Positions 4,692-60,957 of a stretch of DNA of 64,000 bases are shown here, piece after piece. This DNA is from Bdellovibrionota bacterium (GTDB lineage: Bacteria; Bdellovibrionota; FAC87; UBA2466), in contig JBGTAN010000026.1 of the NCBI GenBank assembly GCA_041749855.1, positions 24,472 to 88,471 on the forward strand, read 5' to 3'. How positions within the stretch are numbered: position 1 is the stretch's first letter; each line of letters starts with the position of its first letter. Both the position numbers and the translations under genes were made by a program. The notes beneath the pieces were generated by a model, which did no database searches, was not told the DNA's origin, and was given only the letters and a program-made list of their open reading frames with translations.

Positions 4692-5618
4692 ATGGAATGG
4701 AAGGACGTCGATTGGAAGATTTTTCACAGCCTGCGAGCAGGCTTTCTCACCCGACCCAAGGCCGATTATTGGGACTCTGACCGAGTGCTCGAGCACTACG
4801 ATCTAGCTATCGCACCTCGCATTGTCGATAAATGGCGCTCGGTTTGGGCGGATGTTCAGGCCTCCGGAAAGTGGCCCGCGCCAAGTGTGCTTTTGGATTG
4901 GGGCTGCGGCACGGGTGCGGCAACCCTTGAGTACATCCGAGTCTGGGGGAAGCCAGCAAAGGTTCTGCTCTGGGACCGTTCCCCGCGCGCGGTAGCTTTC
5001 GCAAAGAAAAAAGTGGAAGCGGTGGGGGTGCCTTGCGCCGCGTGGGACGAGAGTCGATTCGATGAACCTTTTGCTTTGATCGTGAGTCACGTCGTCAACG
5101 AAATGGACCCGGCGTCCAAGCAAAATCTCTTTTCGTTCTTACAGCAATCGCAGGCCTTTGCACGGGTGGAACCCGGAACGCCAGAAGCAGCCAAAGAGAT
5201 CATTGAAACACGGGAGAGTGTGACGACGCATACTTGGATCGCACCGTGCCCCCATCAGGCCGCGTGTCCCCTGAAAGCGAGTCAGGAAGATTGGTGCCAT
5301 TTTTTTGCAGAACCGCGACAGGAATATTTCACCAATGGCGATTGGGCGCGGTACGCCCGCGAAATGAAGATCGATTTGCGTTCGCTTCCTGTCAGCTACT
5401 TGATCGGCGTGAAGGGGCAAGACCAGGCGACGCATTCGAGAGGGCGGCTTATAGGGCGACCGAAAGTTCACAAGCGCGATGCGGAAGGTCTAATCTGTCG
5501 TGAATCCGGATGTGAGTGGGAGGCGATTGAACCCGAACAGGGCGAGCGTCTGAAGTCTCTGAAGGACAATCAGCTAGTACGAAGAGGAAAAACGCGGAGC
5601 CCGTGGGGGCCCCGCTGA
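4692..5618 (+). CDS. Rsm22-like SAM-dependent methyltransferase
   Basis: It has SAM motif I LLDWGCGTGAAT and a C-terminal Cys cluster CPHQAACPL...DWCHF of the kind seen in the Rsm22 family. The start is taken at ATG 4692 (MEWKDVDW). Confidence 0.6.
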   Translation: MEWKDVDWKIFHSLRAGFLTRPKADYWDSDRVLEHYDLAIAPRIVDKWRSVWADVQASGKWPAPSVLLDWGCGTGAATLEYIRVWGKPAKVLLWDRSPRAVAFAKKKVEAVGVPCAAWDESRFDEPFALIVSHVVNEMDPASKQNLFSFLQQSQAFARVEPGTPEAAKEIIETRESVTTHTWIAPCPHQAACPLKASQEDWCHFFAEPRQEYFTNGDWARYAREMKIDLRSLPVSYLIGVKGQDQATHSRGRLIGRPKVHKRDAEGLICRESGCEWEAIEPEQGERLKSLKDNQLVRRGKTRSPWGPR

Positions 5619-11802: not shown

Positions 11803-13887
11803 CTACTTCGCGTCCGGGGTATTCTGCCCGGAGGTCACTTGATTCACCGCTGAAATCACAATATCTGGCGTGAGCAGCTGTGGCAAAATGCGCGGCTCAC
11901 CTTCCGCGGGATACAGTACGTAAAGAGGAACGCCGTTGCGCTCGAAGCTCTCGAGTTTACGTGCAATCGTTTCATCTTGGTTGGTCCAATCCGCCTCGAA
12001 GAGCGCCACATTCTTTTCTTTGAAATGCGCTTTCACGGAACCCACATTGAGCGCCACTTTCTTATTTACCTGACAAGTGATGCACCAAGCGGCGGTGAAA
12101 TCGACAAACACCGGCCGTCCCGTCTTTCGAGCTTCATCGACGGCAGCATCTGACCACACCGCCCAATCTCCGTTTGCGGCTTCAGATTTCGAAGCGGGCG
12201 CCGCACCGCTCACAGCGTTCCACGCCCAGGCGAGTGAGCCTAGGACGAAGCACAATGCGAGCACCGCCTGCACCCAGCGCTTTTTGGTTTTGAGTCCGTA
12301 GATCCAAAGACCTACTGAGAAGAAGATCAATGCCAGAAGAATGTGGAAAACAGTGCCGGTGTCTGACTGCAACGCCAGCACACTCATCAGCCACCAAGCA
12401 GTGAGCAGCAGCGGAAAAGCCATCGCTTGTTTGAAAATCACCATCCAAGCCCCGGGTCGAGGAAGGCGCTTGGTCATTCCGGGAAACAAGGAGAACACCA
12501 CATAGGGAGCTGCGAGTCCCAGACCCAAAAAGGTAAACACGCCGACGGCGATTGCCGCAGGTTGCGCAAGTGCAAACCCCATAGCAGTGCCCATGAAAGG
12601 AGCGGTGCACGGAGTGGCAACGACCGTTGCGAGCACGCCTGAAAAGAAAGCCCCAGCCCAACCTTCTTTACCAGCCCATTTCTGCCCGACGCCCATCAGG
12701 GAATCGCCCATCTCAAAAACGCCGAAAAGATTTAACGAAAGACCGACGAGCAAAAAGCTCAGGGCTGCGATGAAAAGGGGAGATTGAAGTTGGAAGCCCC
12801 ATCCCAAGGCTTGGCCGCCCGCTCGTAGTGCCAGCAAGGTTCCGACTAAAAGCCAGAACGAAACGACAATGCCCCCGGTGTATGCCAGGGCATGATGGAA
12901 AGCTTTCTTTTTAGCTGCCCCGCCCAGCTGCGCAAAGCTGAGTACTTTGAGACACAGGACGGGGAAGACACAGGGCATGAGGTTGAGAATCAGCCCTCCC
13001 AAGAACGCGAGCAGTAAAGCGTTCAAGATCTGCGGTGCGGTTGCCATCTCGCGCTGGGCTGAAAGCGTCGGTGCAATCTCGAGCGCCACTTTTTCGCTCC
13101 CGTTCAAAACAACCACTCCGGCCAGGTCTTCGAGTTTCGGTGGGCCTGGATCGGCAAACGGGCTTCTGGGGATCTCTAATTGAATCTCGCCCGGAGAAAT
13201 CACGGGTGCTTGATTCGCGCTATGCTGGATCAACGTTTCCGAGAACGGAAAAAATTCTGCGCTCTTTAGTCCCTCGGTGGGGCCCCGAAGTATCAAGCGA
13301 ATATTTTTATCATCGCTTGAAATTGAAGCCTTCCATTGGGGGGTGCTTGCGGGAATAGAAGCTCGGACCGCGTCGAGTTTGTCCCAATGCTTTGAAAGCT
13401 TCGGTTTTCCCGCTGTCCACGGAAGCGTGAGCGAAAGTGTTGTCTTGCCAGGGATACAAGTTTCCTTGCAAACCAGCCAAGCCACATTCGCGCGAAGCGT
13501 TGCGGATTTCGCGGCTTGCGGTTGAGGTCCGGCCAGGATCTCTGCCAGCAAAGTCAGCTCGCCTTCGTAGCCGAAGTTCACCAAAGGCGAAACGGGTATC
13601 CGACTGGGTGCCGGCCAAAGCAGGGCGCCGGGTAAAAAGCCCTCAGGTAGGATCCATTCGACTCGCGTCATTTCGCCGCTATCCCCTGGATTGCGCCAGT
13701 AGACGTGCCAACCCGGTTCGATCTTGAAGTGGACGCCTACCAGCAGCGTTTGCCCGGAGGCGACTTCGGCTACCGCGGAAACGAGTTCTGCTTGCAGGTG
13801 CGGAGTTTCATTCTTGCGGCCTTGTGCGGAGAAGCCGAAGACTAAAGCGACAGTGAGGCAAAGTATTTTCACCATGGTTGTTGTCAC
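11803..13887 (-). CDS. dsbD: thiol:disulfide interchange protein DsbD
   Basis: The membrane core carries the CVFPVL and CTAPF motifs. The C-terminal thioredoxin domain has FVDFTAAWCITC. Confidence 0.85.
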   Translation of the reverse strand: MTTTMVKILCLTVALVFGFSAQGRKNETPHLQAELVSAVAEVASGQTLLVGVHFKIEPGWHVYWRNPGDSGEMTRVEWILPEGFLPGALLWPAPSRIPVSPLVNFGYEGELTLLAEILAGPQPQAAKSATLRANVAWLVCKETCIPGKTTLSLTLPWTAGKPKLSKHWDKLDAVRASIPASTPQWKASISSDDKNIRLILRGPTEGLKSAEFFPFSETLIQHSANQAPVISPGEIQLEIPRSPFADPGPPKLEDLAGVVVLNGSEKVALEIAPTLSAQREMATAPQILNALLLAFLGGLILNLMPCVFPVLCLKVLSFAQLGGAAKKKAFHHALAYTGGIVVSFWLLVGTLLALRAGGQALGWGFQLQSPLFIAALSFLLVGLSLNLFGVFEMGDSLMGVGQKWAGKEGWAGAFFSGVLATVVATPCTAPFMGTAMGFALAQPAAIAVGVFTFLGLGLAAPYVVFSLFPGMTKRLPRPGAWMVIFKQAMAFPLLLTAWWLMSVLALQSDTGTVFHILLALIFFSVGLWIYGLKTKKRWVQAVLALCFVLGSLAWAWNAVSGAAPASKSEAANGDWAVWSDAAVDEARKTGRPVFVDFTAAWCITCQVNKKVALNVGSVKAHFKEKNVALFEADWTNQDETIARKLESFERNGVPLYVLYPAEGEPRILPQLLTPDIVISAVNQVTSGQNTPDAK

Positions 13888-27339: not shown

Positions 27340-27577
27340 ATCCCTTTGTATTTCGGCACCTATTCACGTTTTGCCGAGGGGTTTATGCGGGTGACACGCT
27401 AGTGACAGTAAAAGCACAGTAACTACCGATAGTTAGGACGCAATGAGGCAGGGGTGTCAGGGTGTAAACAGAGCAAGAATACACCCGCCTAAACACAAAA
27501 TTTCCGTGAATGGATACGCGCACTTAAACAGTCTTCACAATTGCTTATTGGCTCAGGCCCTGCAGTCTAAAGCCTTG

Positions 27578-28834
27578 ATGAACTTTGTCCGCGCCATAAC
27601 TCTATGCCTACTGGTCATGACCTCGGGTCATGCTGCGTTCGGCGAGTGCGGTCCAAACGGTTGCCGTACCGGGGGCGGGGCTTCTAGTTGGACGAATTTC
27701 ACGCCGAGGTTGTCTTCGCCGACCCCGGCCGGCGGAGGCGGTATGCAGGGGCAGCCGGCTGTCGATTCAGCCGCGTTGGAAAAGACCGCAGCCGACACTG
27801 CTTTAGAGGCCAAAACAAAGGAGCGCAAGGAAGCTGAGGAGGAAAAGCCTCCCAACAAGGAAAAAATAGACCGACTGAAGAAGGAAGAAGAGATTGCAAA
27901 TCAAAGGGTCCAAAATGCCAATGCCGCACTTAAACAAGCGCAGGATCGTCAGAGGGCTTTGACCGGCGACGATAGTGCTCCAAGCGACAATGCCTCCCAT
28001 GGCGGCGATGAACCTAAAAAAGGCGGCGGCGATTCTCCACCGCCACCACCACCTCCTCCTCCTCCTCCTCCTCCTCCTCCTCCTCCTCCGGCAGAAAAGA
28101 AGGGCGACGAACAGCCGCCACCACAAACGCCGCCAGCTAAGAATGAACCTCAGGCAAAGACCGAGATTCCTGAGCCAAAAGCTGATCCGCGGCTTGAAGC
28201 CATTGAGAAAGAACTTGTTGATTTGAAAACAGCGACCCTGGCCGAATCGCAACAGTCGCCTGCTACCGACGCAGCCGCTGATCAGCTTGCCGCCATCGCG
28301 AAAAATAACGAAGCCCAAGTTGCGCAAGTGTTGAAAGACGTTCAAGCCGTGAGTGCCGTGCAGAGTGATCTCAATCGCTCAAGCGGGAATCAGGTCGCTT
28401 CGACTGGATCTTCAAGTGGCACTACCCGCGGAGGGATTGCAGCCGGGATGGGCGCTTCAGGTGGGACTACAACTGCTTCGAGCCAAGCAGGGCAAGTGGC
28501 CGGAACTTCAGTGCGAGACACGCTCGGTGTCCCCGGGTCCAGCGCACGCGCTTTCAAAGCGCCGGCTCAAACGCAAGGCGCTGGTGGAAGTAGCGCTATC
28601 GAATTGTCGGATTTATCGTCTTCGGAAAACGCTCTGGCCCCTAGGGCAGCGAGTGTGGGCGGAGTTCCCACTTATGGGCGAGGGATTGCCAGCGTAAGTA
28701 CACGGTCGGTCAGTCGAGTTTCGGATCCGAATGCACCGGTTTTGCCTGGACCGCTTTCAGTGGTCATGAAGGGAAACAAAGTCGTTCTCGGTTCCACCCG
28801 CACTGAGGCCCAAGCCCGGGCACTAAAGAACTAG
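27578..28834 (+). CDS. secreted coiled-coil / poly-proline / Ser-Gly-rich protein
   Basis: The start is taken at MNFVRAITLCLLVMTSGHAAFG (ATG 27578). A charged helical segment is followed by a long proline run and then a low-complexity S/G/A/T-rich tail. Confidence 0.6.
   Translation: MNFVRAITLCLLVMTSGHAAFGECGPNGCRTGGGASSWTNFTPRLSSPTPAGGGGMQGQPAVDSAALEKTAADTALEAKTKERKEAEEEKPPNKEKIDRLKKEEEIANQRVQNANAALKQAQDRQRALTGDDSAPSDNASHGGDEPKKGGGDSPPPPPPPPPPPPPPPPPPAEKKGDEQPPPQTPPAKNEPQAKTEIPEPKADPRLEAIEKELVDLKTATLAESQQSPATDAAADQLAAIAKNNEAQVAQVLKDVQAVSAVQSDLNRSSGNQVASTGSSSGTTRGGIAAGMGASGGTTTASSQAGQVAGTSVRDTLGVPGSSARAFKAPAQTQGAGGSSAIELSDLSSSENALAPRAASVGGVPTYGRGIASVSTRSVSRVSDPNAPVLPGPLSVVMKGNKVVLGSTRTEAQARALKN
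28052..28087 (+). repeat. (CCT)12 trinucleotide microsatellite inside a CDS
   Basis: Counted directly: twelve consecutive CCT codons within an 18-codon proline run (28037-28090). Confidence 0.95.
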
Positions 28835-38461: not shown

Positions 38462-38477
38462 TGGCACCCCGGTTGCA
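38462..38477 (+). promoter_or_regulatory. sigma-54 (-24/-12) promoter
   Basis: CTGGCACCCCGGTTGCAA matches YTGGCAC-N5-TTGCW exactly, with a GG-N10-GC spacing. It lies about 40 nt upstream of ATG 38519. Confidence 0.55.
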
Positions 38478-38518
38478 ACCTGGACGGGCGCTAACCCGAA
38501 CGAAAAGGAGTGAAGGAT

Positions 38519-38854
38519 ATGTTCCCTTCTGAAAACGAGATCAATCAAACAGTTCCAACGGCTATTCAACCGATGACCCCCGTGAAAAAGAGCACGAGAG
38601 GTTTTGCTTCGATGAACCCTGAGCGTCAGCGTGAGATCGCCCGCAAAGGCGGACGTGCCGCTCATCAAAAAGGCACGGCTCATGAATTTACACCTGAAGA
38701 AGCTCGCGTGGCCGGCCGTAAGGGCGGACAAGCAGTAAGCCGCGATCGCGCACACATGGCCTTGATTGGTCGTGAAGGTGGGCAGGCTCGTGGTGCAAAA
38801 GCCGCGCGTCAAGCGCAGCTCGCTTCTCAACAGAGCGTTCAACAAGCTTCCTAA
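38519..38854 (+). CDS. KGG-repeat general stress protein (YciG-like)
   Basis: Repeated KGG/EGG motifs (IARKGGRAAH, AGRKGGQAVS, IGREGGQARG). AAGGAG lies 8 nt upstream of ATG 38519. Confidence 0.75.
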   Translation: MFPSENEINQTVPTAIQPMTPVKKSTRGFASMNPERQREIARKGGRAAHQKGTAHEFTPEEARVAGRKGGQAVSRDRAHMALIGREGGQARGAKAARQAQLASQQSVQQAS

Positions 38855-49821: not shown

Positions 49822-51839
49822 ACGAGATGCCGACGCCTTCAGGGCTGGTCGAACTGGCCATTCCTCTTCGAGTTGAGGGAAGTTTTCACTACCTTTTTGA
49901 TCCGACGGCGGACCTACAAGTGGGCAGTGTCGTTGAAGTCAGTTTCAACCGTCGACCCACCCACGCTTTCGTTCTGGGTTTTCCCGAGTCGAGCGACATA
50001 GCGGAACATAAGCTCAAGCCCATTCAAACTGTGCTGGCCAAAGATCCCCTCTTTGATCCGGCGATGCTGAAGTTTCTCCGCTGGGTTGCCGAGTACTACT
50101 GCCATCCGTTGGGTGAAGTGCTCTCAGCTGCGATTCCGAAACAGCTTTGCATCGCGCCGTTGGAGAAAAAAGAAAAAGCGATTAACGCTAAGCCGTTGAA
50201 GTTCGTTGTCTCCGCTACGACCGATATTCCCGATCTCACGGCGGAACAATCGGCCGTGCTTGCTGAAATTGAAGCGGAGAACGAGAAGCCGGTCCTACTC
50301 CATGGGGTGACGGGGAGTGGAAAGACCGAAGTATACATCCGCGTTTTGGAGAGATTCGCTGCGCAAGGCAAAAGCGGGCTGATACTCGTTCCGGAGATCG
50401 CACTCACCCCTCAATTGCTTGGACGATTTGATTCCCGCTTTCCTGGAAAGGTGGCTGTGCTTCACAGCGATCTCACTCCCAAGGAGCGGATGGGACAATG
50501 GGAGCGTATCCGTCGAGGGCTGGCGACGGTCGTGATTGGTGCGCGTTCTGCGGTTTTTGCGCCCCTACAGAATTTGGGATTGATCGTTGTCGATGAAGAA
50601 CATGAAACTTCGTTCAAACAAGAAGACTCGCTTCGTTACCACGCGCGCGATGTGGCTGTGGTCCGAGGGCGTTTTAGTGGGGCAAAAGTCCTTCTAGGAT
50701 CTGCGACGCCTTCCCTGGAAAGCATTTCAAATGTCCGAAGTGGGCGCTACCGTCTTTGCCGCTTAAGCAAGCGAGTGATGGAACGCCCCATGCCGAAGGT
50801 CACGCTCGTGGACTTGCGTGACAAGCAAGAGTGGCATGCGCCAGAAACACCCTGGTTGAGCCGTCGCTTGGTGGGGCGAATTCGAGAAACCTTGGATAAG
50901 AAGCAGCAAGCGATGCTGTACTTGAATCGACTGGGATATGCACATTTCCTGTTCTGTCAGGACTGCGGTCACACCTGGAAATGCCGGCAGTGCGATGTCA
51001 GTCTTACCTACTACCGGCATCCGCCATCGCTTCAGTGCCACTATTGCGGCTCGGATCATAGTGTTCCCTCCAGTTGCGAGGCCTGCGCCGGCGCGAATTT
51101 GACGACGATGGGAGTGGGCACTGAGCAGGTGGAGAAAACGCTTCAGGGGATATTGCCCACTGCTCGTATTGCTCGGATGGACCGCAGCGTGATTAAGACA
51201 CGTAAGGATTTGGAAAGCATTCTTACGACAGTTGCCAATCGCGAAGTCGACGTCATCATCGGCACGCAGATGTTGGCCAAGGGACACGACTTTCCCGGTA
51301 TTTCGCTCGTCGGCATTCTGATGGCAGATGCTACTTTGAATATGCCTGACTTCCGTGCGGCGGAGCGGACTTTTCAAATTATTACCCAGGTTTCTGGTCG
51401 GGCAGGGCGCGGCGAAATTGCGGGTGAAGTCATTCTACAAAGTCTCAACCCCGACGCGCCGATTCTCCATCAGGCCATGGCGGGAGAGTATGAAAATTTT
51501 TACACAGAGGAATTGAAAGCGCGTGCCGCACTGGGGTTTCCTCCTTCAAAGCGCATGGCGATGTTGCGCTTTCAGCACAAGAATCAAGCGCGCGTGCAGG
51601 AAGTGGCAGATCGCGTCGTGCAGTTTCTGGTGTCTCGTGCGCTTCCGGGAGTGCAGATTTTAGGCCCCGCTGAAGCACCGCTTGCTAGAATCAAGAACTT
51701 CTATCGCTGGCATTGTTTGGCCAAATGCGATTCCGTTCGGCAAATGCAGACTCTAATTCATATGGCGATCGAGTATTCCGATCACCTAAAATCCGGCGTT
51801 CAAATGGCGGTCGACGTCGATCCCGTCAGCACGCTTTAG
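49818..51839 (+). CDS. priA: primosomal protein N-prime (replication restart helicase)
   Basis: Walker A GVTGSGKTE, DEEHE, and the Cys-rich zinc-binding insert CQDCGH..CRQCD...CHYCG...CEAC. Confidence 0.9.
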   Translation: MNEMPTPSGLVELAIPLRVEGSFHYLFDPTADLQVGSVVEVSFNRRPTHAFVLGFPESSDIAEHKLKPIQTVLAKDPLFDPAMLKFLRWVAEYYCHPLGEVLSAAIPKQLCIAPLEKKEKAINAKPLKFVVSATTDIPDLTAEQSAVLAEIEAENEKPVLLHGVTGSGKTEVYIRVLERFAAQGKSGLILVPEIALTPQLLGRFDSRFPGKVAVLHSDLTPKERMGQWERIRRGLATVVIGARSAVFAPLQNLGLIVVDEEHETSFKQEDSLRYHARDVAVVRGRFSGAKVLLGSATPSLESISNVRSGRYRLCRLSKRVMERPMPKVTLVDLRDKQEWHAPETPWLSRRLVGRIRETLDKKQQAMLYLNRLGYAHFLFCQDCGHTWKCRQCDVSLTYYRHPPSLQCHYCGSDHSVPSSCEACAGANLTTMGVGTEQVEKTLQGILPTARIARMDRSVIKTRKDLESILTTVANREVDVIIGTQMLAKGHDFPGISLVGILMADATLNMPDFRAAERTFQIITQVSGRAGRGEIAGEVILQSLNPDAPILHQAMAGEYENFYTEELKARAALGFPPSKRMAMLRFQHKNQARVQEVADRVVQFLVSRALPGVQILGPAEAPLARIKNFYRWHCLAKCDSVRQMQTLIHMAIEYSDHLKSGVQMAVDVDPVSTL

Positions 51840-51841
51840 GG

Positions 51842-51857
51842 CTCTCCGCGCGGAGAG
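51842..51857. repeat. 16-nt palindrome CTCTCCGCGCGGAGAG (left flank of HNH gene 2)
   Basis: Read directly. It starts 3 nt after the priA stop codon and is identical to 4282-4297. Confidence 0.85.
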
Positions 51858-51928
51858 TTCATCTCGAAAATGCAGAACCGACTCAATTCTTGTTGCCAAA
51901 CCTAACAAGGATACATAGGTATGTATCT

Positions 51929-52795
51929 ATGAAAACCGAAGCACTTCATCAGAGGGCACTGACCGTCGTCAAAAGCTATCGCGCTGCTGAAGGGGCGCTT
52001 GTAAGCATCCTTCAAGAAATAGATCGCGATCATAGGTATCGAGAGTTGGGCTACCCAAGTCTATTTGTTTATGCGACGGGCGGACTGGGAATGATCGACG
52101 CAGAAGCATACCGTTTTATTACCGTTGCTAGAAAGTCAGTGGAGATTCCACTTCTGAAGGATGCTATCGACCAAGGGAGTCTGAATGTCTCGAAGGCATC
52201 GCGAATTGCTTCCGTAATTGTCCCTGCAAATCAGGAGCAATGGCTTGAGGCCGCGACGACCCTTCCGTATCGAGAGTTGGAAAAGGCTGTTGCCGCTGCT
52301 CATCCAGATGTGGAAGTGCGTGAACGCGTGCGCCCTATTTCTGGGGATCGTTCGGAGCTGCGGTGTGGTCTAAGTAGCACACTGGAAGCAAAGATTCAGC
52401 GGGCTCGAGATGTGCTCTCTCAAAAACGTCGCGGCAACTGTTCCTTGGAAGATGTTATCGATGTAGCCATTTCCCTTTTTCTCGAAAAGCAGGATCCAGT
52501 TCGGAAGGCCACCCGAGCTACTGAGTCGAAGTTTCCAAGTCGCCCCATTAACTTAGCAAGTCGCAACTCGGACGGGAGCAGGCGGGCGTTACCTGCAGCT
52601 GTAGCACATCAGGTGGTTTTGAGAGATCGGGGCCGTTGTACTTATGTAGGTTTGACCGGGGTGAGATGTTGCTCTGAAAGATGGATCGAGAAACACCACA
52701 TTCAGCAGGTGGCTAAGGGAGGCAATCATTCCGACCGCAACCTCGCCACCCTATGCTTCGCTCATCATCAGCTTATTCATGAAAAGACTGGATGA
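51929..52795 (+). CDS. HNH endonuclease with DUF222-like N-terminal region
   Basis: C-terminal motif IEKHHIQQVAKGGNHSDRNLATLCFAHHQ. The N-terminal region SILQEIDRDHRYRELGYPSLFVYATGGLGMIDAEAYRFITVARK is arranged as in the 35403 paralog. The start is ATG 51929. Confidence 0.75.
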   Translation: MKTEALHQRALTVVKSYRAAEGALVSILQEIDRDHRYRELGYPSLFVYATGGLGMIDAEAYRFITVARKSVEIPLLKDAIDQGSLNVSKASRIASVIVPANQEQWLEAATTLPYRELEKAVAAAHPDVEVRERVRPISGDRSELRCGLSSTLEAKIQRARDVLSQKRRGNCSLEDVIDVAISLFLEKQDPVRKATRATESKFPSRPINLASRNSDGSRRALPAAVAHQVVLRDRGRCTYVGLTGVRCCSERWIEKHHIQQVAKGGNHSDRNLATLCFAHHQLIHEKTG

Positions 52796-54308: not shown

Positions 54309-55139
54309 TCAGTGCTTCTTCCGCTTCTTCCCGGTCGGCACAGGGGCGAGCTTTGCTTGCCGCAATAGGTACCAGCCTGTTACCAGAGTTCCGACCAGCA
54401 TCACGATAGAAAGCCACTGGCCCATCGTGAGTCCGAGAAGCAGGTAGCCCAGGTGCGCGTCCGGCTGCCGAAAAAACTCCACAATGAACCGTGCAAGCGT
54501 GTATCCCACTGCGAAAATCACCGAGAGAATTCCATCGGTCTTGATCCGGTCCTTCAGCACCCAGAGCACAATTCCGAGAATCACGCTTTCCAACATCAGC
54601 TCATAAAGCTGTGATGGGTGGCGAGGGAGAGGGCCCCCTCCGCGAAAGACCATGCCCCACGGTACATCCGTTACGCGGCCGTAGAGCTCTCCGTTGATAA
54701 AGTTTCCAATTCTTCCCATCCCCAAACCGGGAGTGGCGCACAAGCACATGGCGTCCGCCAGGTTCCACCACGGGATTCCTCGCTTCTTAGCGAAGATGTA
54801 GCCGGCGACCATCACTCCCAGGATGCCCCCGTGAAAAGAAAGGCCTCCTTGATAGACTTTGAAAAGGTAGAAAGGGTCTTGAATGAGGCTGATAGGATCG
54901 TAAACGAAGCAGTAGATGACGCGCGCGCCTATGACGGCTCCCAGGAGGCCCCAGACAATGAGTTGTTCAACATCCTCTTCGGTGAATTTGTAGCGCTCCT
55001 GACGCGCTAGGTGCCGCAGAATCATGCGTCCCACAAGAAATCCGCCGACATAAAGCAGCGAGTACCATCGGATAGCGATGGGTCCCCAGATGTGCAGGAG
55101 TACGGGATCGAAGTTCGGGTGCTGAAGGTACTGATTCAT
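54309..55139 (-). CDS. lgt: prolipoprotein diacylglyceryl transferase
   Basis: IRWYSLLY, GRIGNFINGELYG and RHPSQLYE motifs. Confidence 0.9.
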   Translation of the reverse strand: MNQYLQHPNFDPVLLHIWGPIAIRWYSLLYVGGFLVGRMILRHLARQERYKFTEEDVEQLIVWGLLGAVIGARVIYCFVYDPISLIQDPFYLFKVYQGGLSFHGGILGVMVAGYIFAKKRGIPWWNLADAMCLCATPGLGMGRIGNFINGELYGRVTDVPWGMVFRGGGPLPRHPSQLYELMLESVILGIVLWVLKDRIKTDGILSVIFAVGYTLARFIVEFFRQPDAHLGYLLLGLTMGQWLSIVMLVGTLVTGWYLLRQAKLAPVPTGKKRKKH

Positions 55140-55307
55140 ACGGTGATGCTATCTGTACAGTGGGATCGCGACAAATCAAAAAACCGAGTGGCGGATTCGA
55201 GCCGTTCGTCAAGTGGATTCACTCGGAGAAGCTTGTGCAACTTGCACTTGCAGGCAGCGAACCTTTACGGCAACTTCCTCATTTACGTTCGCAGTGCCGG
55301 AGGAAAA

Positions 55308-55580
55308 ATGAACAAGAACGAATTAGTCGCACGTGTCGCTGAGGAAACGAAGCTGACGAAGGCCGACTGCCAGCGAGTCATCGAGGCGACACTGGAAGCT
55401 GCCCGAAAAACGGTTAAAAAAGGCGATGAACTTCGCCTGATCGGGTTTGGAACCTTTGTGCGTTCGAAACGAAGCGCACGCAAAGGACGCAATCCTCAAA
55501 CCGGCGCGGAAATTTCTATTCCCGCCCAGTGGGTTGCTCGATTTCGTCCCGGAAAAGAATTTAAAGACTTTCTGAATTGA
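55308..55580 (+). CDS. hup: HU family DNA-binding protein
   Basis: MNKNELV....GFGTF......AR.GRNPQTG..I.I motifs, 90 aa, with GGAGGA 5 nt upstream. Confidence 0.9.
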   Translation: MNKNELVARVAEETKLTKADCQRVIEATLEAARKTVKKGDELRLIGFGTFVRSKRSARKGRNPQTGAEISIPAQWVARFRPGKEFKDFLN

Positions 55581-55670
55581 AACGCGTCGAACTCTTCCTC
55601 GCGAGGGGTGCGATCTGACACTTTTGCGCGTGGACACTCGGTCTACGCCCGTTTCTCCCGCATAGCGCGC

Positions 55671-55686
55671 TGGCACGACTGCTGCT
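55671..55686 (+). promoter_or_regulatory. sigma-54-like promoter (one mismatch in the -12 element)
   Basis: CTGGCACGACTGCTGCT has GG-N10-GC spacing, TGGCACG at -24, and CTGC instead of TTGC at -12. It lies about 30 nt upstream of GTG 55715. Confidence 0.35.
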
Positions 55687-55714
55687 TCGATGAGTAGGCA
55701 GAGGCTAGGCACAA

Positions 55715-56329
55715 GTGTTTCATCTTTCTCTCATTCTAAGTCTGTTCGTCGTTACACTGGTTTTGGCCGAGGAGCGCAGTCGTCCTCCCCTCATGCCAGA
55801 GCGGATGGTGGACTCCCATGCCGAAGTCCAGTCTTCCGTGAGTGCGCGCAAACCCATTCCGACGCGTTTAGGAATTCAAGGCGGTGGGATGGCTTTCGCC
55901 CAAGGCGCGGGTTCGCCTGTTTCCGCGGGGGAGCTCTTTGCGGGCGCGCGGCTTTTCTCGCGGCTTGCGATGGGTGAGCGTTGGTACTTCACTCCTTCGA
56001 TTGGCTACTATCGTCTGATATCCGCTCCCACCCTTACGACGGTGAATCCGAATCTTTTGGAGTTGGGTGCAGGTTTTCACTATGCCTTTTTTAAACTGGG
56101 GCCCCTGGGCTTTTTAGGCGGAGTCTCTCAGCGGCTGGGTTGGCGTTTTACCGGCGAAACAGGGCAGCTCAAGGGACGCTGGTATTACCGTGTCGGTCCG
56201 GCGGCCACCGTAAATTTACGCGTGACAGGATCCCTCAGCGCGCTGGTTGGCGCCGAAGTGAATTTTCCGCTAGTAAATCCAATCACGCCCGAGTGGGTCG
56301 GGCATGCCGGTTTCTTGTTTGCTCTTTAG
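55715..56329 (+). CDS. putative secreted/outer-membrane hypothetical protein
   Basis: GTG start, signal-like MFHLSLILSLFVVTLVLA, and an alternating strand pattern. Confidence 0.5.
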   Translation: MFHLSLILSLFVVTLVLAEERSRPPLMPERMVDSHAEVQSSVSARKPIPTRLGIQGGGMAFAQGAGSPVSAGELFAGARLFSRLAMGERWYFTPSIGYYRLISAPTLTTVNPNLLELGAGFHYAFFKLGPLGFLGGVSQRLGWRFTGETGQLKGRWYYRVGPAATVNLRVTGSLSALVGAEVNFPLVNPITPEWVGHAGFLFAL

Positions 56330-56347
56330 AAGGATTGAACGGCCCTA

Positions 56348-56746
56348 TTAGTGGGCGATCGGGCTGCCGCTTTGTGTGGACTGAGCGAAACTTTCCTCGC
56401 GGCGCTCTTCTGCTTCCATCTCCGATTTGCAGTTGATGCAAAGGTCGGTTACGGGACGCGCCTGGAGGCGCTTCACGCCGATGGGTTCACTGCAAGAGAC
56501 GCAGATCCCGTAAGAACCTTCCGCGATCTTTTTGAGCGCTTCATGCACCTTACCGATGAGCTTGCGTTCGCGGTCCTTGATACGGAGTTCAAAGCTGCGC
56601 TCGGTTTCAAAACTGGCCTGGTCATTGATATCGGCCAGAACGGGGGTCGGAGCGGACTGAGCTAGATTGCGAGCCATGTCGCTCTGCAAATCCTTCAGCT
56701 GTTTTTCCAACGCTTCCTTGAGCTTAGAGAGTTCCGCTTTTTTCAT
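56348..56746 (-). CDS. DksA/TraR family C4 zinc-finger regulator
   Basis: N-terminal coiled coil followed by CVSCSEPIGVKRLQARPVTDLCINC. The start is taken at MKKAELSKLKEALE (ATG 56746). Confidence 0.8.
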   Translation of the reverse strand: MKKAELSKLKEALEKQLKDLQSDMARNLAQSAPTPVLADINDQASFETERSFELRIKDRERKLIGKVHEALKKIAEGSYGICVSCSEPIGVKRLQARPVTDLCINCKSEMEAEERREESFAQSTQSGSPIAH

Positions 56747-56880
56747 GTATTTCCCCACCTTGTTGCGACTGACAAACCTGAAAGGTAAAACCTTCATCAA
56801 TCGGGTCGTTAAAGTCAACTTCCGACCACTAAGGCAGGGTTCTATAGCAAATTGGGTGGGGGCGCGCTAGGGAGTTTCGG

Positions 56881-56969
56881 AAAAATTAACGGGAGCAACC
56901 CCTCAGACAAGATATGTGCATTGGGGCCACATAAGGGGGAGGAGGCGAGTCCTTGAGGTTGCTCCCGTT
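56881..56969 (-). terminator. long compound hairpin plus T-tract downstream of the Gly/Tyr-rich protein gene
   Basis: A 13-bp perfect stem AACGGGAGCAACC (56888-56900) / GGTTGCTCCCGTT (56957-56969) encloses an inner TATGTG/CACATA hairpin. On the minus strand it is followed by AATTTTT. Confidence 0.5.
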
Positions 56970-57017
56970 TCCAAAGGCCGAACTTTCGCTTCTTGAGCGT
57001 TGTTCTCCTTTAAACTT

Positions 57018-57764
57018 TTAGTGCACCGACCGGGGGATGTCGTAACGCGTAGGCGTTCCGAGTACCGTCTGGTCGCTGTAATTGAAGATCGGTGCCTGTG
57101 TGGGGGTCGTAGGCCCCGTTGGGCACTGAACCACTCCACCGCAACCGCCCCAAGGAGGCGCTGTTGGGGGATAGCTCGGGTAATTCACCACAGGTCCCTG
57201 GTCCCAAGGATTGGGAAGCAAAGGATTGTAATTTGTCAGCGTGGTTGGGTACGTCGGATACGTTGGGAACTGAGGATTCTGCGAGCAGCTTGGCTGATAG
57301 CAGGTCGGGTACTGGAAGCAGTTCGACTGTCCGTAGTTCTGGTATCCGTAAAAAATCGGAAGCTCGATATTGATGTTGATGTCGTAGTCGTAGCCGCTCA
57401 AATAGCTGCCCGAATCCCAACCGCCATAGCAGCTGCCGCTCGAAGAGAAGCTGCCGCAAGATCCGCCCCAGTTATTTCCATAGAGGCTGCTGGAGTCGTA
57501 AAAACTACCGAGGTTGTACAAGTCGGTACCGAAGCCATAGAGGTTCGAACCCCCTGCGCCGTACATTCCGCCCCAAGCAGCATCATAGCCGTAGCTGCCG
57601 TAGCCACCGTAGCTGCTCGCTCCGTAACCGCCGTAGCTGCTACCGCCGTAACCACCGTAGCTGGAGTAGCCAAATTCGAATTCGGCATTCGCTTTAGAAG
57701 CGCCAAAGTGAGCAGAGATCAGGGCAAACATCCCGACCACTAGAAAGAGTTTTAAACGCGTCAT
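57018..57764 (-). CDS. secreted Gly/Tyr/Ser-rich low-complexity protein with Cys- and Pro-rich C-terminal half
   Basis: ATG 57764 has GGAGA upstream. Signal peptide MTRLKLFLVVGMFALISAHFGASKANA is followed by SSYGGYG-type repeats and then a Q/P/Y/C-rich region. Confidence 0.65.
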   Translation of the reverse strand: MTRLKLFLVVGMFALISAHFGASKANAEFEFGYSSYGGYGGSSYGGYGASSYGGYGSYGYDAAWGGMYGAGGSNLYGFGTDLYNLGSFYDSSSLYGNNWGGSCGSFSSSGSCYGGWDSGSYLSGYDYDININIELPIFYGYQNYGQSNCFQYPTCYQPSCSQNPQFPTYPTYPTTLTNYNPLLPNPWDQGPVVNYPSYPPTAPPWGGCGGVVQCPTGPTTPTQAPIFNYSDQTVLGTPTRYDIPRSVH

Positions 57765-58056
57765 CTTTATCTCCGCTGCTTTTCGCAACTACTATTCAAC
57801 GCCCACACACGAAGGCGCAGCTTAAGGATGAGCAAGCCCTATGCCACGAGCGCCCGTCACAGGCCCGCGCTCGGAGGAGTCTGTATTCGAAAGGAATGGG
57901 CCGTAGACAGGCGGTTGTGGTTTTGTCCAAGAGATGCGACAAGAGTCGCGATAGGGCACTCCGCCTTTATTTTTAAGGATGTACGCTGTAAAGTTAGAGG
58001 ACATTCGTTGACCGAAAAACGCCGCAAAAGCGGCTCTTCAGCCAAGGGCACCAATC

Positions 58057-58875
58057 ATGAAAATCGGAAATGCTTTGCTAGGGTTTAGTTCCGCTCTTGT
58101 GTTCTGTTTGAATGCGGCAGCAAATACGACCGAATTTACCCCGGTGCAGCAACGCGCTCAAGGGCAGTCTCTTGCTGGCGCCAACCTACTTAACGACAGT
58201 TTATACTCCAATCCTGCTTCCAGCTCTTTCACACAGGCCTACTCAGTGGACGCGAGCTTTCAGTCAGTGAAGTCGTTTGCTGCATCGATTCTCGATACCA
58301 AGACCTCTGCCATCGGCGGAATCGCAGGCTATTACCGCATGCCTTTCAACATGGGGGACCAAAAAGTCGAAGGGGTGAAAGTAGGGGCGCTGGGCCGAAT
58401 GAGCGAAAACTTTGGTGTGGGCATTTTAGGCAAGATGATTTGGGGGACTGACCTTGCCGGTGCCCCTGCGAGGTACACGGATGTGGATCTCGGCGCGATT
58501 TTGCACTTTGACTCTATTCAGTTTGGTCTAAGCACGCGCAATCTGCTCGGTGGAAGCGCGGCCATGGGCGACCGTCGCGAGTACTCGATTGGAACGCAGG
58601 CGAACTGGGAACAGACGGTGTTTTTGAATGCTGCGATGACGGGTGACGGCCAGAATCTACGCCCGCTTCAGTATGGCTTCGGTGCGGAGTATGTTTCGCC
58701 CTACCACTTCGCCCTTAAGGGCGGATACCGCATTCGCACCGCGTCGAATGAGTCCTTCTGGAGTGCGGGGGCCAGTATCCTCTCCCCGAAAGTCTCCGTG
58801 CACTACTCAGTTGAATTCCCCAATCAAACCGGCGGCTCAATGGAGCACATGGTCGGAACGACCGTGCTGTTCTAA
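58057..58875 (+). CDS. outer-membrane beta-barrel protein (FadL/PorV-like N-terminal motif)
   Basis: Signal peptide, GQSLAGANLLNDSLYSNPAS (the G.s.aGA...nD......NPA pattern of OM transport barrels), and a C-terminal ...VGTTVLF. Confidence 0.55.
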   Translation: MKIGNALLGFSSALVFCLNAAANTTEFTPVQQRAQGQSLAGANLLNDSLYSNPASSSFTQAYSVDASFQSVKSFAASILDTKTSAIGGIAGYYRMPFNMGDQKVEGVKVGALGRMSENFGVGILGKMIWGTDLAGAPARYTDVDLGAILHFDSIQFGLSTRNLLGGSAAMGDRREYSIGTQANWEQTVFLNAAMTGDGQNLRPLQYGFGAEYVSPYHFALKGGYRIRTASNESFWSAGASILSPKVSVHYSVEFPNQTGGSMEHMVGTTVLF

Positions 58876-58928
58876 GCAACGCGCGCCGCGGTTGAGTTTT
58901 TCCGTGCGAGTTCCGATGGGTTTGTCGG

Positions 58929-59789
58929 ATGCACTTCTTCGGCAAAATCCTTGTCATCTTGTGCGTTGCATTATCGTTTATGGCGTTGGGGATAGACGCC
59001 CCGGCTCCTGAAACGGCTATTCTTCCGCCGCTCGCCGCCGAGGAGGACATCGAACCCTCCTCTACCTTTACGCTGATTCCCAAAGGCCGACTCTTTCCGC
59101 TGACTTTTGCTGACCCACGGGAGGTTCGCACGGCGGTGACTTTCTCTGGAAGTGCTCCCATTCAAGCGATGATCGGCAGCTATCTCTCCCTATTGGGTGT
59201 AACGGGTGCCGACAATGGCTGGAATTTTCACTTTGGATTAGAGGGCAGGGGCTACTTCACGATGCGTCAGGAAGGGGGGCGTTTTCCTCTGGAGACGGTC
59301 GATGGAACGTTGGGGATCTATTTTGAGTATGCAAGTGGTCCTTGGCACAGTCAGCTGCGCTACACGCACGTTTCCGCACATCTCGCCGATGGATTGACGG
59401 GTAGTAGCCCGATTCCCTATAGCCGAGAGACTTTGAGTTTGCGAGGCGGCTACTCCCCAAACAAACACTCTCAGATTTACCTAGGCATTCATCGACTGGT
59501 GAACACCGTTCCGAAAGTGCATCCGCTAGCGTTGCAATTGGGGGGCTCCTACTTCTTTCCGACAGGGCTGCAAACAACCCCGTATTTTGCGGCAGACTTG
59601 CGGTGGCAGGAAGAGACGAAGGTGAACCCTTCGTTTGCATTGCAGTTGGGATTTGCTCTACACCAGATTCCCGATCACCTGCGGTCGTTCAAACTCTACT
59701 ACCAGTACTACACAGGTGCGGATGTGCGCGGTCAGTTCTATCTTGGCACGACCACTAGTCACTCTTTTGGTCTCGAATTGCCTCTCTAG
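58929..59789 (+). CDS. DUF1207-like outer-membrane protein
   Basis: LFPLTFADPREVRTAVTF resembles the conserved N-terminal motif of DUF1207 proteins. It has a beta-rich composition. The assignment is from memory. Confidence 0.45.
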   Translation: MHFFGKILVILCVALSFMALGIDAPAPETAILPPLAAEEDIEPSSTFTLIPKGRLFPLTFADPREVRTAVTFSGSAPIQAMIGSYLSLLGVTGADNGWNFHFGLEGRGYFTMRQEGGRFPLETVDGTLGIYFEYASGPWHSQLRYTHVSAHLADGLTGSSPIPYSRETLSLRGGYSPNKHSQIYLGIHRLVNTVPKVHPLALQLGGSYFFPTGLQTTPYFAADLRWQEETKVNPSFALQLGFALHQIPDHLRSFKLYYQYYTGADVRGQFYLGTTTSHSFGLELPL

Positions 59790-59795
59790 TATTTC

Positions 59796-60335
59796 TCAGG
59801 GTCCCACCGGAACAGGCAGGCAAGCTTCGATGGCCTTGGTAATTTGACTCACGGTGGCGCCCTCCTTTTTAAAGACCACTTCACCCATCGTATCGACGAC
59901 TACCGCGTTAGGGATGCCGGTTCCTGCGCCAAAAAAATCTCCTCCGCAGTGCCTGGGAGAACCCGCGACGACAAACTGAGCTTGTGCTTGGGCGAGACGG
60001 TGCTTAGTCGACCATTCGGTGAGAAAGGTCTGGTTCGGGGCCGCACCGTAATTCCAGCCTTCGCAGGAGAGACTGAAAAAGACGACATTCTTCTCTTTGA
60101 ATTTCGCCATGTCGCTACCGATGGTGGCGAACTCGGAGTTACAAGGGCCGCACCAACCCGCGTTGAATAGCAAGACGCGCACCGCGAAGTCATGGGTTTT
60201 GTCCTCCAAGCAGACTTGCTGCCCGGCTACGTCCGTCCAGCAATAGTTCTTTGGTTTATCCCCTACCTCGGTGAGGGCAATGAGAGAGTGATTCGAGAAG
60301 AGGAAGATGAGCATTACGATGAGTCGAAGCGTCAT
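59796..60335 (-). CDS. secreted thioredoxin-fold protein (TlpA/ResA-like), paralog B
   Basis: WCGPC active site and a signal peptide. More than half of its positions are identical by eye to the upstream paralog. Confidence 0.75.
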   Translation of the reverse strand: MTLRLIVMLIFLFSNHSLIALTEVGDKPKNYCWTDVAGQQVCLEDKTHDFAVRVLLFNAGWCGPCNSEFATIGSDMAKFKEKNVVFFSLSCEGWNYGAAPNQTFLTEWSTKHRLAQAQAQFVVAGSPRHCGGDFFGAGTGIPNAVVVDTMGEVVFKKEGATVSQITKAIEACLPVPVGP

Positions 60336-60420: not shown

Positions 60421-60957
60421 TTAAGGCATTGAGGGCACGGGCGTCGGAAGCACCCGTTCTACTTCTCGGACAATGGCGTTCACACCCGGGTTGATCTCTT
60501 TGTAAGAAACCACTCCCGATGAATCGATCACGACGACATTGGGAATATAGACGCTCGAGAAGAAGTCGTTTCCGGCATTGCGAGGGGAGCTCGCGACCAC
60601 GAAACTGGCTTGTGCGCTGTTCAATCGATGGCGCGTCGACCATTCTTTGAGAAAGCCGGTAGAAGCCCCGGCGCCTCGGCTCCAACCGTCGCTCGAAAGA
60701 CTGATGAAGACGACGGGCTTGCCTTTGAACTTGTTGGTTGCTGATGCAATCGTCGAGAACTCAGTATTGCAGGGGCCACACCAACCTGCGTTGTAGAGAA
60801 GGACACGCACCGAATCTCTGTGTGCAGCATCTTCGAGACATACTTGCGCTTCGTTGGTGTCTTTCCAACAGTAGTTCTTGGGTTTGTCCCCCACCTCGGT
60901 GAGGCCAAAAGCAGAGGAAGCAAAGACGAAGGCGAAAGTGAGGATCGATTTTCTCAT
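60421..60957 (-). CDS. secreted thioredoxin-fold protein (TlpA/ResA-like), paralog A
   Basis: WCGPC active site and a signal peptide. The N-terminal motif LTEVGDKPKNYCW.D....QVCLED is shared with paralog B. Confidence 0.75.
   Translation of the reverse strand: MRKSILTFAFVFASSAFGLTEVGDKPKNYCWKDTNEAQVCLEDAAHRDSVRVLLYNAGWCGPCNTEFSTIASATNKFKGKPVVFISLSSDGWSRGAGASTGFLKEWSTRHRLNSAQASFVVASSPRNAGNDFFSSVYIPNVVVIDSSGVVSYKEINPGVNAIVREVERVLPTPVPSMP

Follow-up and report, generated by a model that had tools for sequence, protein, structure and literature searches.

We analyzed a protein-coding gene and its flanking DNA on the minus strand of a 64,000-nucleotide stretch of contig JBGTAN010000026.1 from a Bdellovibrionota bacterium (the window), the source of which is a hot-spring or biofilm community. 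Our preferred reading, to which we assign a probability of about 0.55, is that one sigma-54-controlled transcript yields both a disordered, disulfide-stapled protein exported to the envelope or surface and a separately functional RNA at its 3' end. The strongest results concern the RNA, its promoter, and natural variants that lack the open reading frame (ORF), rather than the Gly/Tyr repeats of the encoded protein. The parts of the unit are as follows.

57831-57846, minus strand: putative sigma-54 (-24/-12) promoter, TGGCATAGGGCTTGCT, of the form TGGCAT-N5-TTGCT, 66 nt upstream of the ATG; the motif columns do not vary in the alignment of intergenic regions
57771-57774, minus strand: Shine-Dalgarno sequence GGAG, 7 nt before the ATG at 57764, read from the sequence; a GCGGA(G/A) block is kept in relatives
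57018-57764, minus strand: coding sequence for an exported low-complexity protein of 248 aa, with the stop codon at 57018-57020; no other frame is open in every relative
56881-56969, minus strand: structured RNA (hairpin 56888-56969, core 56913-56946) with a long variable stem and an invariant apical part, followed by a U-tract in the window

A conserved structured RNA downstream of the gene

An alignment of the interval between the stop codon and the downstream dksA gene revealed invariant sequence enclosed in a stem whose arms differ completely between loci. In the window, the hairpin has a 15-bp basal stem, is followed by AAUUUUU, and has a z-score of -3.1 against shuffled sequences. The invariant core, of which the window holds one copy, consists of GCCTCCTCCCCC, 1-4 nt, TATGTGGCCCC, 3-5 nt, and CACATA, and the apical part of the RNA is C-rich (GCCUCCUCCCCC-UAUGUG-GCCCC..-CACAUA). 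A metagenome scan with the 22 fixed core bases and a variable spacer of 1-4 nt returned 24 loci, among which L018 was identified as a false match by the covariance model described below.

All 27 distinct RNA sequences fold alike, with an outer stem of 19-25 bp, a C-rich 5' internal loop (U-C/U-GCCUCCUCCCCC-U), an invariant 6-bp apical hairpin with the loop GCCCCGAAA, and a 3' linker of 3-4 nt. The 5' arms are just 38% identical to one another. Cognate stem arms nevertheless pair at -35.5 +/- 4.0 kcal/mol, compared to -15.9 +/- 5.3 for foreign arms, and the cognate arm ranked first in 24 of 27 cases. Because MAFFT with RNAalifold detected only the inner invariant hairpin and misaligned the outer stem, a covariance model was seeded by hand from seven sequences. 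It gave exactly one strong match per locus; a second match in L026 was weak (24 bits). In the resulting alignment, compensatory changes were found at all 16 outer stem pairs, and 92.7% of cells were paired, compared to 69.4% after shuffling and 30-54% when the partners were slid. The covariation score was 0.675 versus 0.208, and none of 500 shuffles reached 0.675.

A search of Rfam 15 produced no match at E <= 1 in positions 55000-60000 and none at the gathering score in the whole window, and on this basis the signal recognition particle RNA, 6S RNA, and other known RNAs were rejected as the identity of the hairpin. Nothing relevant was found in the literature on the RNA sequence or on sigma-54 small RNAs (sRNAs) in Bdellovibrio. 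Judged by its covariation, this is a very well supported structured RNA that is absent from Rfam, and its kinds (sigma-54-driven and 3'-end RNAs) are known.

Two further observations were made next to this RNA. A second, smaller hairpin (56970-57014, minus strand) sits between the stop codon, which it follows directly, and the conserved RNA, and several relatives have a GC-rich hairpin at that place; it may belong to the RNA or mark a processing boundary. At locus L009, a second CCTCCTCCCCC string was noted immediately downstream of the RNA hairpin (about 4720-4735, minus strand).

The promoter and natural loci lacking the ORF

When the upstream regions (200-350 nt) of seven loci were aligned, the invariant columns spelled TGGCA-A----TTGCT, the sigma-54 -24/-12 consensus. 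The strict form TGGCAY-N5-TTGCT occurs exactly once upstream of the ORF position in 18 of 18 loci with enough upstream DNA. In the window, TGGCATAGGGCTTGCT has the hallmarks of such a promoter (TGGCAC-N5-TTGCW, with GG at -24, GC at -12, and the correct placement), and the whole 64 kb contains two strict matches where about 0.2 would be expected by chance, as estimated from the degeneracy of the pattern. From the promoter motif, we infer that transcription in vivo depends on sigma-54.

The other strict match, TGGCACCCCGGTTGCA at 38462-38477 (plus strand), lies 33 nt upstream of a 114-aa ORF (38510-38854, plus strand) with KGG stress-protein repeats (Pfam PF10685, E 1.8e-17). Both strict matches in the window thus stand ahead of genes encoding small low-complexity proteins. 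A conserved block, T-TACAGCGTA ... AAAAATAAAG (57950-57990), is located between the promoter and the divergent outer-membrane barrel gene in all seven aligned loci, and could be a divergent promoter of the barrel gene, an integration host factor site, or an activator binding site.

The ORF is present in 16 of the 18 lineages with enough upstream sequence. Loci L010 and L022 have no ORF, and the sigma-54 promoter stands 164 and 129 nt, respectively, upstream of the RNA core. Compared to its close ORF-bearing relative L015, L010 has the appearance of a clean ORF deletion that has joined the 5' leader and the 3' RNA. The retention of promoter and RNA after loss of the ORF indicates that the RNA is maintained independently of the protein and argues that it has a function of its own; these natural variants show that the RNA stands alone. 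Beside the module in L010 (5865-8813) are DIT1/PvcA-like, TauD-like, and cytochrome P450 genes, types used in tyrosine-derived isonitrile or dityrosine chemistry, and their closeness to the module is probably coincidental.

The reading frame and its relatives

We found the sense frame to be open in 16 of 16 full-length relatives. An antisense ORF (57000-57743, 240 codons) is open in the window alone and broken in every relative, and was ruled out as the expressed product. Since only the sense frame stays open throughout, the ORF is more than a chance occurrence. The G+C content at codon positions 1, 2, and 3 is 47, 53, and 66%, with a high third position as in the neighboring genes. On this comparative evidence, 57018-57764 is a genuine gene for an exported low-charge, low-complexity protein. 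An earlier sequence-only reading, which had proposed a secreted low-complexity protein here and had named a broken frame in relatives or an expressed antisense ORF as grounds for abandoning the proposal, is thus borne out in this respect. It was also noted that contigs from the same hot-spring samples match parts of the gene (57507-57545, 57627) at 90-95% identity and then diverge, which suggests a diverged gene copy in related strains or species of the same community.

The protein family is small and was difficult to recover. A word-indexed search of 5.8 billion proteins returned one relative, P0002, from a metagenome-assembled genome; it shares AWGGMYG, PPWGGCGxxVQCPTGPTTP, and GTPxRYxIPR with the window protein, carries its own SSYGGYG run at another position, and lies in the same gene order (DUF1207, a 268-aa protein, the family gene, dksA, lgt). 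Just 7 proteins came out of an exhaustive hidden Markov model search across 1.84 billion representatives, and 11 were known after a profile search; a scan of a genome collection yielded a single relative, the one already known. Two more members have identical gene contexts. Many more copies, too divergent for sequence search, were recovered through two anchors, namely the neighboring outer-membrane gene (89 clusters, all metagenomic) and the RNA motif in metagenome loci. The family thereby comprises about 25 relatives, all metagenomic, in which the frame, the signal peptide, and five short motifs are kept. The ORF products are 28-50% identical with large indels, and 23 sequences were aligned (alignment A7; an earlier alignment, A3, held 7). 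The protein features are listed below.

57684-57764, minus strand: predicted signal peptide, residues 1-27, with cleavage after ANA, read from the sequence; A-x-A followed by E recurs in the family
57582-57671, minus strand: Gly/Tyr/Ser repeat region, residues 32-61, 3 x SSYGGYG; variable, absent, or different in relatives
57516-57587, minus strand: motif 1, YDAAWGGMYGAGGSNLYGFGTDLY, consensus DPxWxGxYxTGGYNLYxFG, from alignments A3 and A7
57414-57470, minus strand: motif 2, WGGSCGSFSSSGSCYGGWD, with Cys pair C103/C112, consensus WGGxCGxFxxSCxxxYD, from the alignments
57360-57380, minus strand: motif 3, ININIEL, alternating hydrophobic/polar and strand-like; QLxxQLI in one subclade
57111-57158, minus strand: motif 4, PPWGGCGGVVQCPTGP, with the invariant Cys pair C208/C214, consensus PPWGGC(G/D)xxxxCPxGP, from the 23-sequence alignment
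57021-57053, minus strand: motif 5, C-terminal PTRYDIPRSVH, consensus P-x-R-Y-x-I/V-P-R-G/T-x-x-H; P244 and R245 invariant

Across the 23 sequences, the architecture consists of the signal peptide (usually A-x-A plus Glu), a variable N-terminal stretch, motifs 1-3, a variable middle rich in Cys, Gly/Tyr, or Pro, motif 4, a Pro/Thr-rich linker, and motif 5. The invariant residues are C208, C214, P244, and R245; C103 and C112 are present in most members, and of the seven cysteines of the window protein only C208 and C214 are invariant. Charged residues (D/E/K/R) are steady at 3-8%, whereas Gly (9-24%), Tyr (6-19%), and Pro (7-21%) vary, and several members are Pro/Thr/Asn-rich. From these ranges it follows that the Gly/Tyr repeats are not the conserved core. 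As far as the alignment reveals, the low-charge, low-complexity character is what is conserved and the Gly/Tyr repeats are a lineage-specific elaboration. The emphasis that the sequence-only reading put on the SSYGGYG repeats is accordingly not supported, as these are the variable part of the family and the conserved part lies in the five motifs and in C208 and C214. The homolog search that had been recommended found no Pfam or NCBIfam match for the window protein, no Pfam match at E <= 0.1 for any of the 23 members, and no sequence match in the Protein Data Bank (PDB) with profiles from A3 or A7. Nothing relevant was found in the literature on Gly/Tyr-rich secreted bacterial proteins. The family is therefore new to the curated libraries searched, and its kind, exported low-complexity proteins, is already known.

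Composition, repeats, and predicted fold

The product begins with MTRLKLFLVVGMFALISAHFGASKANA|EFEFGY, in which MTRLK, a hydrophobic core, and an A-x-A site, all read by eye, form a typical Sec signal peptide. Exact SSYGGYG units occur three times, at residues 34, 42, and 50, and Tandem Repeats Finder reports a 24-nt unit in 2.8 copies with 83% matches at 57597-57663. The mature protein is composed of 17% Gly, 14% Tyr, 12% Ser, and 10% Pro; only 14 of its 221 residues (6%) are D, E, K, or R, with two Arg, no Lys, and a net charge of -10. Seven cysteines are present, at positions 103, 112, 149, 155, 160, 208, and 214, and the C-terminal half is Q/P/Y/T-rich. These counts on the translated ORF agree with the signal peptide, the imperfect tandem repeat at about 57590-57670, the seven Cys, the Q/P/Y/T-rich later part, and the scarcity of charged residues that the sequence-only reading had described.

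The same reading had likened the protein to FUS-like [G/S]Y[G/S] domains. The low charge of both the window protein and the family speaks for this likeness; against it, just 8 [GS]Y[GS] sites were counted in the 221 residues, and the Tyr/Gly content is not conserved. A FUS-like self-assembling material is possible for the window lineage itself, and the family as a whole does not support such a material. AlphaFold, run on the window protein with a 7-sequence alignment, gave a mean pLDDT of 38.8 with no confident fold, too low for a fold search. This value fits disorder, although with so shallow an alignment it is not proof.

Comparison with known systems

FUS-like or prion-like low-complexity domains and eukaryotic Gly/Tyr structural proteins, including plant glycine-rich, eggshell, and cuticle proteins, are Gly/Ser/Tyr-rich and almost uncharged, with aromatic residues spaced by small ones. 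The window protein resembles them in these respects and in having no predicted fold. Unlike FUS-like domains, it comes from a bacterium, is exported by means of a signal peptide, and has few [GS]Y[GS] sites alongside Cys pairs and Pro/Thr-rich linkers; its Gly/Tyr richness is not conserved in the family, and the sequences are not homologous.

Curli (CsgA/CsgG) and Fap (FapC/FapF) likewise place a secreted low-complexity protein beside outer-membrane barrel genes in a divergent arrangement. However, the window protein has no imperfect amyloid repeats and only one strand-like segment, ININIEL, which is replaced in one subclade; the locus has no CsgG or FapF homolog, and FapF was a generic barrel match only (rank 22, TM 0.43). 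Membership in these systems was rejected for lack of amyloid-core repeats and of a dedicated CsgG/FapF channel at the locus. A similar outcome was obtained for type IX secretion. The best structural matches of the neighboring barrel are PorV chains and the putative cargo has a conserved C-terminus, but the PorV/PorQ score of the barrel is below the cut-off with FadL-family proteins nearly as close, no type IX C-terminal domain is present in the cargo, and no other type IX components were seen. The protein was rejected as a type IX cargo because it has no Por secretion tail match in Pfam or NCBIfam and its C-terminus is an 11-residue motif, not a domain.

Qrr, GlmY, CrcZ, and Pxr are sigma-54-dependent small RNAs. 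The RNA described here resembles them in pairing a -24/-12 promoter with a small structured RNA, which is standalone in L010 and L022, and differs in having no similarity to any Rfam family and in forming the 3' end of a protein-coding mRNA in most lineages. CpxQ, SroC, and MicL are sRNAs derived from 3' untranslated regions, and RsaE/RoxS are C-rich sRNAs that pair with Shine-Dalgarno sequences. The window RNA shares with these the position at an mRNA 3' end, a terminal hairpin, and unpaired C-rich stretches (CCUCCUCCCCC and a GCCCC loop). These sRNAs belong to other phyla and show no homology to it, and the window contained no ribosome-binding site that matches.

Weighing of the explanations

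Under the preferred reading, a sigma-54-dependent transcription unit would have two products. Its mRNA would encode a Sec-exported protein of about 220 mature residues belonging to a small family restricted to an uncultured diderm lineage. The mature protein would be intrinsically disordered and near-uncharged, with Tyr, Trp, and Phe spaced by Gly, Ser, Pro, Thr, and Asn and with the five motifs punctuating the sequence. Two of these motifs are probable disulfide loops (C-x8-C and C-x5-C) that would form after export. The protein may be a regulated structural component of the envelope or cell surface, possibly adhesive, whose motifs dock with one another or with a partner and whose low-complexity linkers act as variable spacers; the SSYGGYG repeats would then represent a recent slippage-type expansion of one linker. 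The 3' end of the transcript would form a hairpin RNA of about 80-100 nt with an invariant, anti-Shine-Dalgarno-like C-rich internal loop (CCUCCUCCCCC) and an invariant apical hairpin, most likely a 3'-end-derived regulatory RNA or a protein-binding RNA acting through its unpaired C-rich sequences. We infer the export route, disulfides, disorder, structural role, and mode of RNA action from sequence features. The surroundings speak for an envelope role, with the divergent PorV/FadL-like barrel, the DUF1207 protein, and thioredoxin-fold genes beside them, in a module kept at all loci. A more elaborate version, in which a sticker-and-spacer protein builds a condensate-like or crosslinked envelope or surface layer and a C-rich 3' riboregulator (or a ribosome- or protein-binding RNA) coordinates envelope remodeling with the adjacent DksA, is quite improbable as a whole.

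Several points weigh against the preferred reading. The protein gene is missing in two lineages, so that the protein is dispensable at least there, and its final location may be the periplasm, the outer membrane, or the cell exterior. The low AlphaFold confidence comes from an alignment of just seven sequences and leaves room for a small, motif-built fold. No RNA run contains the window sequence, and no transcript or protein evidence for the window was found; the sole RNA-library signal is one metatranscriptome contig with the RNA core of an L013-like relative (4.8 kb, depth 25), which is unstranded and could contain DNA. No sigma-54 activator of the GAFTGA type is encoded in the 64 kb. In the subclade of the window, the RNA also looks like a plain intrinsic terminator. 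Finally, the only perfect target of the C-rich loop in the window is a (GGA)n coding repeat, with none at ribosome-binding sites. The (CCT)n/(GGA)n run itself spans about 38 nt (28052-28089) inside a 463-aa ORF (27443-28834, plus strand) that has no Pfam match.

We considered whether selection acts mainly on the RNA, so that the unit would in essence be a small RNA gene driven by sigma-54 beside dksA and the ORF a fast-evolving passenger with a product of minor or conditional role. This is unlikely, though it accounts for the invariance of the RNA core across 27 loci with flanking proteins of only 40-60% identity, for the ORF as the least conserved part of the unit, and for the persistence of promoter and RNA in L010 and L022. 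What stands against it is the retention of the frame, signal peptide, ribosome-binding site, and all five motifs in 16 of 18 lineages, which points to purifying selection on the protein rather than drift. It is more doubtful that the protein is a secreted fiber or amyloid-like matrix subunit exported across the outer membrane by one or both neighboring barrels, with the C-terminal P-R-Y-x-I-P-R-G-x-x-H as the recognition signal, a proposal modeled on curli, Fap, or PorV-type cargo shuttling. In its favor, the gene for a 14-strand barrel with best fold matches to type IX PorV always lies divergently beside the ORF, and the conserved C-terminus, the strand-like ININIEL, and the aromatic-rich low-complexity composition would suit such a subunit. 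However, neither repeated amyloid core units nor a type IX C-terminal domain was found (no Pfam or NCBIfam match), the barrel scores far under the PorV/PorQ cut-off (26.9 versus 90 bits) and is fitted nearly equally by FadL-type channels for hydrophobic substrates, the neighboring operon is divergent and not shared, and the barrel pair stays in L010 where the ORF is gone.

The hairpin had been read from the sequence as the gene's own large terminator, and the gene had been given a 290-nt upstream region. The hairpin with its U-tract stood up to analysis, as did the upstream interval (292 nt); the element is a conserved structured RNA rather than a mere terminator. The reading that it is only an elaborate intrinsic terminator and mRNA stabilizer for the ORF, conserved through a constraint on the DNA such as a protein-binding site upstream of dksA, would agree with the U-tract in the window and its closest relatives and with the location of the hairpin between two same-strand genes. 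Yet most relatives have no U-tract, and a separate canonical terminator lies just downstream of the RNA in the subclade of L023, L031, and L034, probably also in L024 and L032. The hairpin is kept when the ORF is deleted, and a terminator needs no near-invariant unpaired or apical sequence of 34-36 nt. The covariation of the stem further indicates that pairing within a single strand is what is selected. A plain terminator was rejected as the identity of the hairpin on the basis of the missing U-tract, the retention without the ORF, and the covariation, and we regard the terminator-only reading as very improbable.

Neighboring genes and other features of the window

The order DUF1207, barrel gene, promoter, ORF, RNA, dksA, with the first two genes transcribed divergently from the rest, was found in every locus with enough flank, with the ORF absent from L010 and L022. 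The neighboring features in the window are the following.

56348-56746, minus strand: dksA, 132 aa from the ATG at 56746 (Pfam DksA_N and zf-dskA_traR), always downstream of the RNA in all loci
56849-56841 and 56818-56813, minus strand: promoter-like TGCTATAGA and TTGACT, respectively, upstream of dksA
58057-58875, plus strand: divergent 14-stranded outer-membrane beta-barrel with a predicted PorV/FadL fold (AlphaFold pLDDT 90.2), syntenic in all loci
58929-59789, plus strand: DUF1207 protein of a predicted outer-membrane barrel family (Pfam PF06727, E 3.7e-10), second gene of the divergent pair, syntenic

In most loci, a TTGAC element follows the RNA, joined by TGCTATAGA in the window subclade; these elements look like a separate dksA promoter. 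The DksA proteins of the subclade L013, L025, L027, and L033 carry a long Lys/Ala-rich N-terminal extension of histone-H1-like appearance (MMKKKAKKLVKKSPAKKIKKK...). The best PDB fold matches of the barrel are the PorV chains 6h3i_F and 8gl6_F (TMq 0.63-0.73), closely followed by FadL, TodX, and CymD; along with its NCBIfam PorV/PorQ score, its PorP/SprF and TraF_2 matches are below threshold. Nothing relevant was found in the literature on DUF1207.

Two AhpC/TSA-Redoxin thioredoxin-fold genes (59796-60335 and 60421-60957, both minus strand) follow the DUF1207 gene, one of them syntenic in most relatives, and a DsbD homolog is located at 11803-13887 (minus strand). These might bear on the disulfide handling of exported Cys-containing proteins. 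The window also encodes Lgt, PriA, HU, an OMP_myx_plus domain, and many peptidases. A 360-aa ORF between priA and an M50 peptidase gene (51713-52795, plus strand), not found at that place in the loci of relatives, may be an inserted gene; it has no Pfam match and a weak NCBIfam match to the HNH part of IscB (E 9.7e-4, 18 bits).

Implications for the lineage

Because the Gly/Tyr repeats are the variable part, the family as a whole does not amount to a bacterial FUS-like material. If confirmed, the window protein would represent a family without a Pfam, NCBIfam, or PDB entry and a rare case of a bacterial exported, near-uncharged, aromatic-rich disordered protein in which short motifs and Cys pairs are what is conserved, and it would be a tractable model of such sequences and their behavior outside the cytoplasm. 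The RNA, if confirmed, would be a new one that has an invariant loop resembling an anti-Shine-Dalgarno sequence, is preceded by a conserved sigma-54 promoter, and always lies beside dksA. The module as a whole marks an uncultured lineage that is labeled just "bacterium" in databases, for which the 23-nt core of the RNA is a precise probe.

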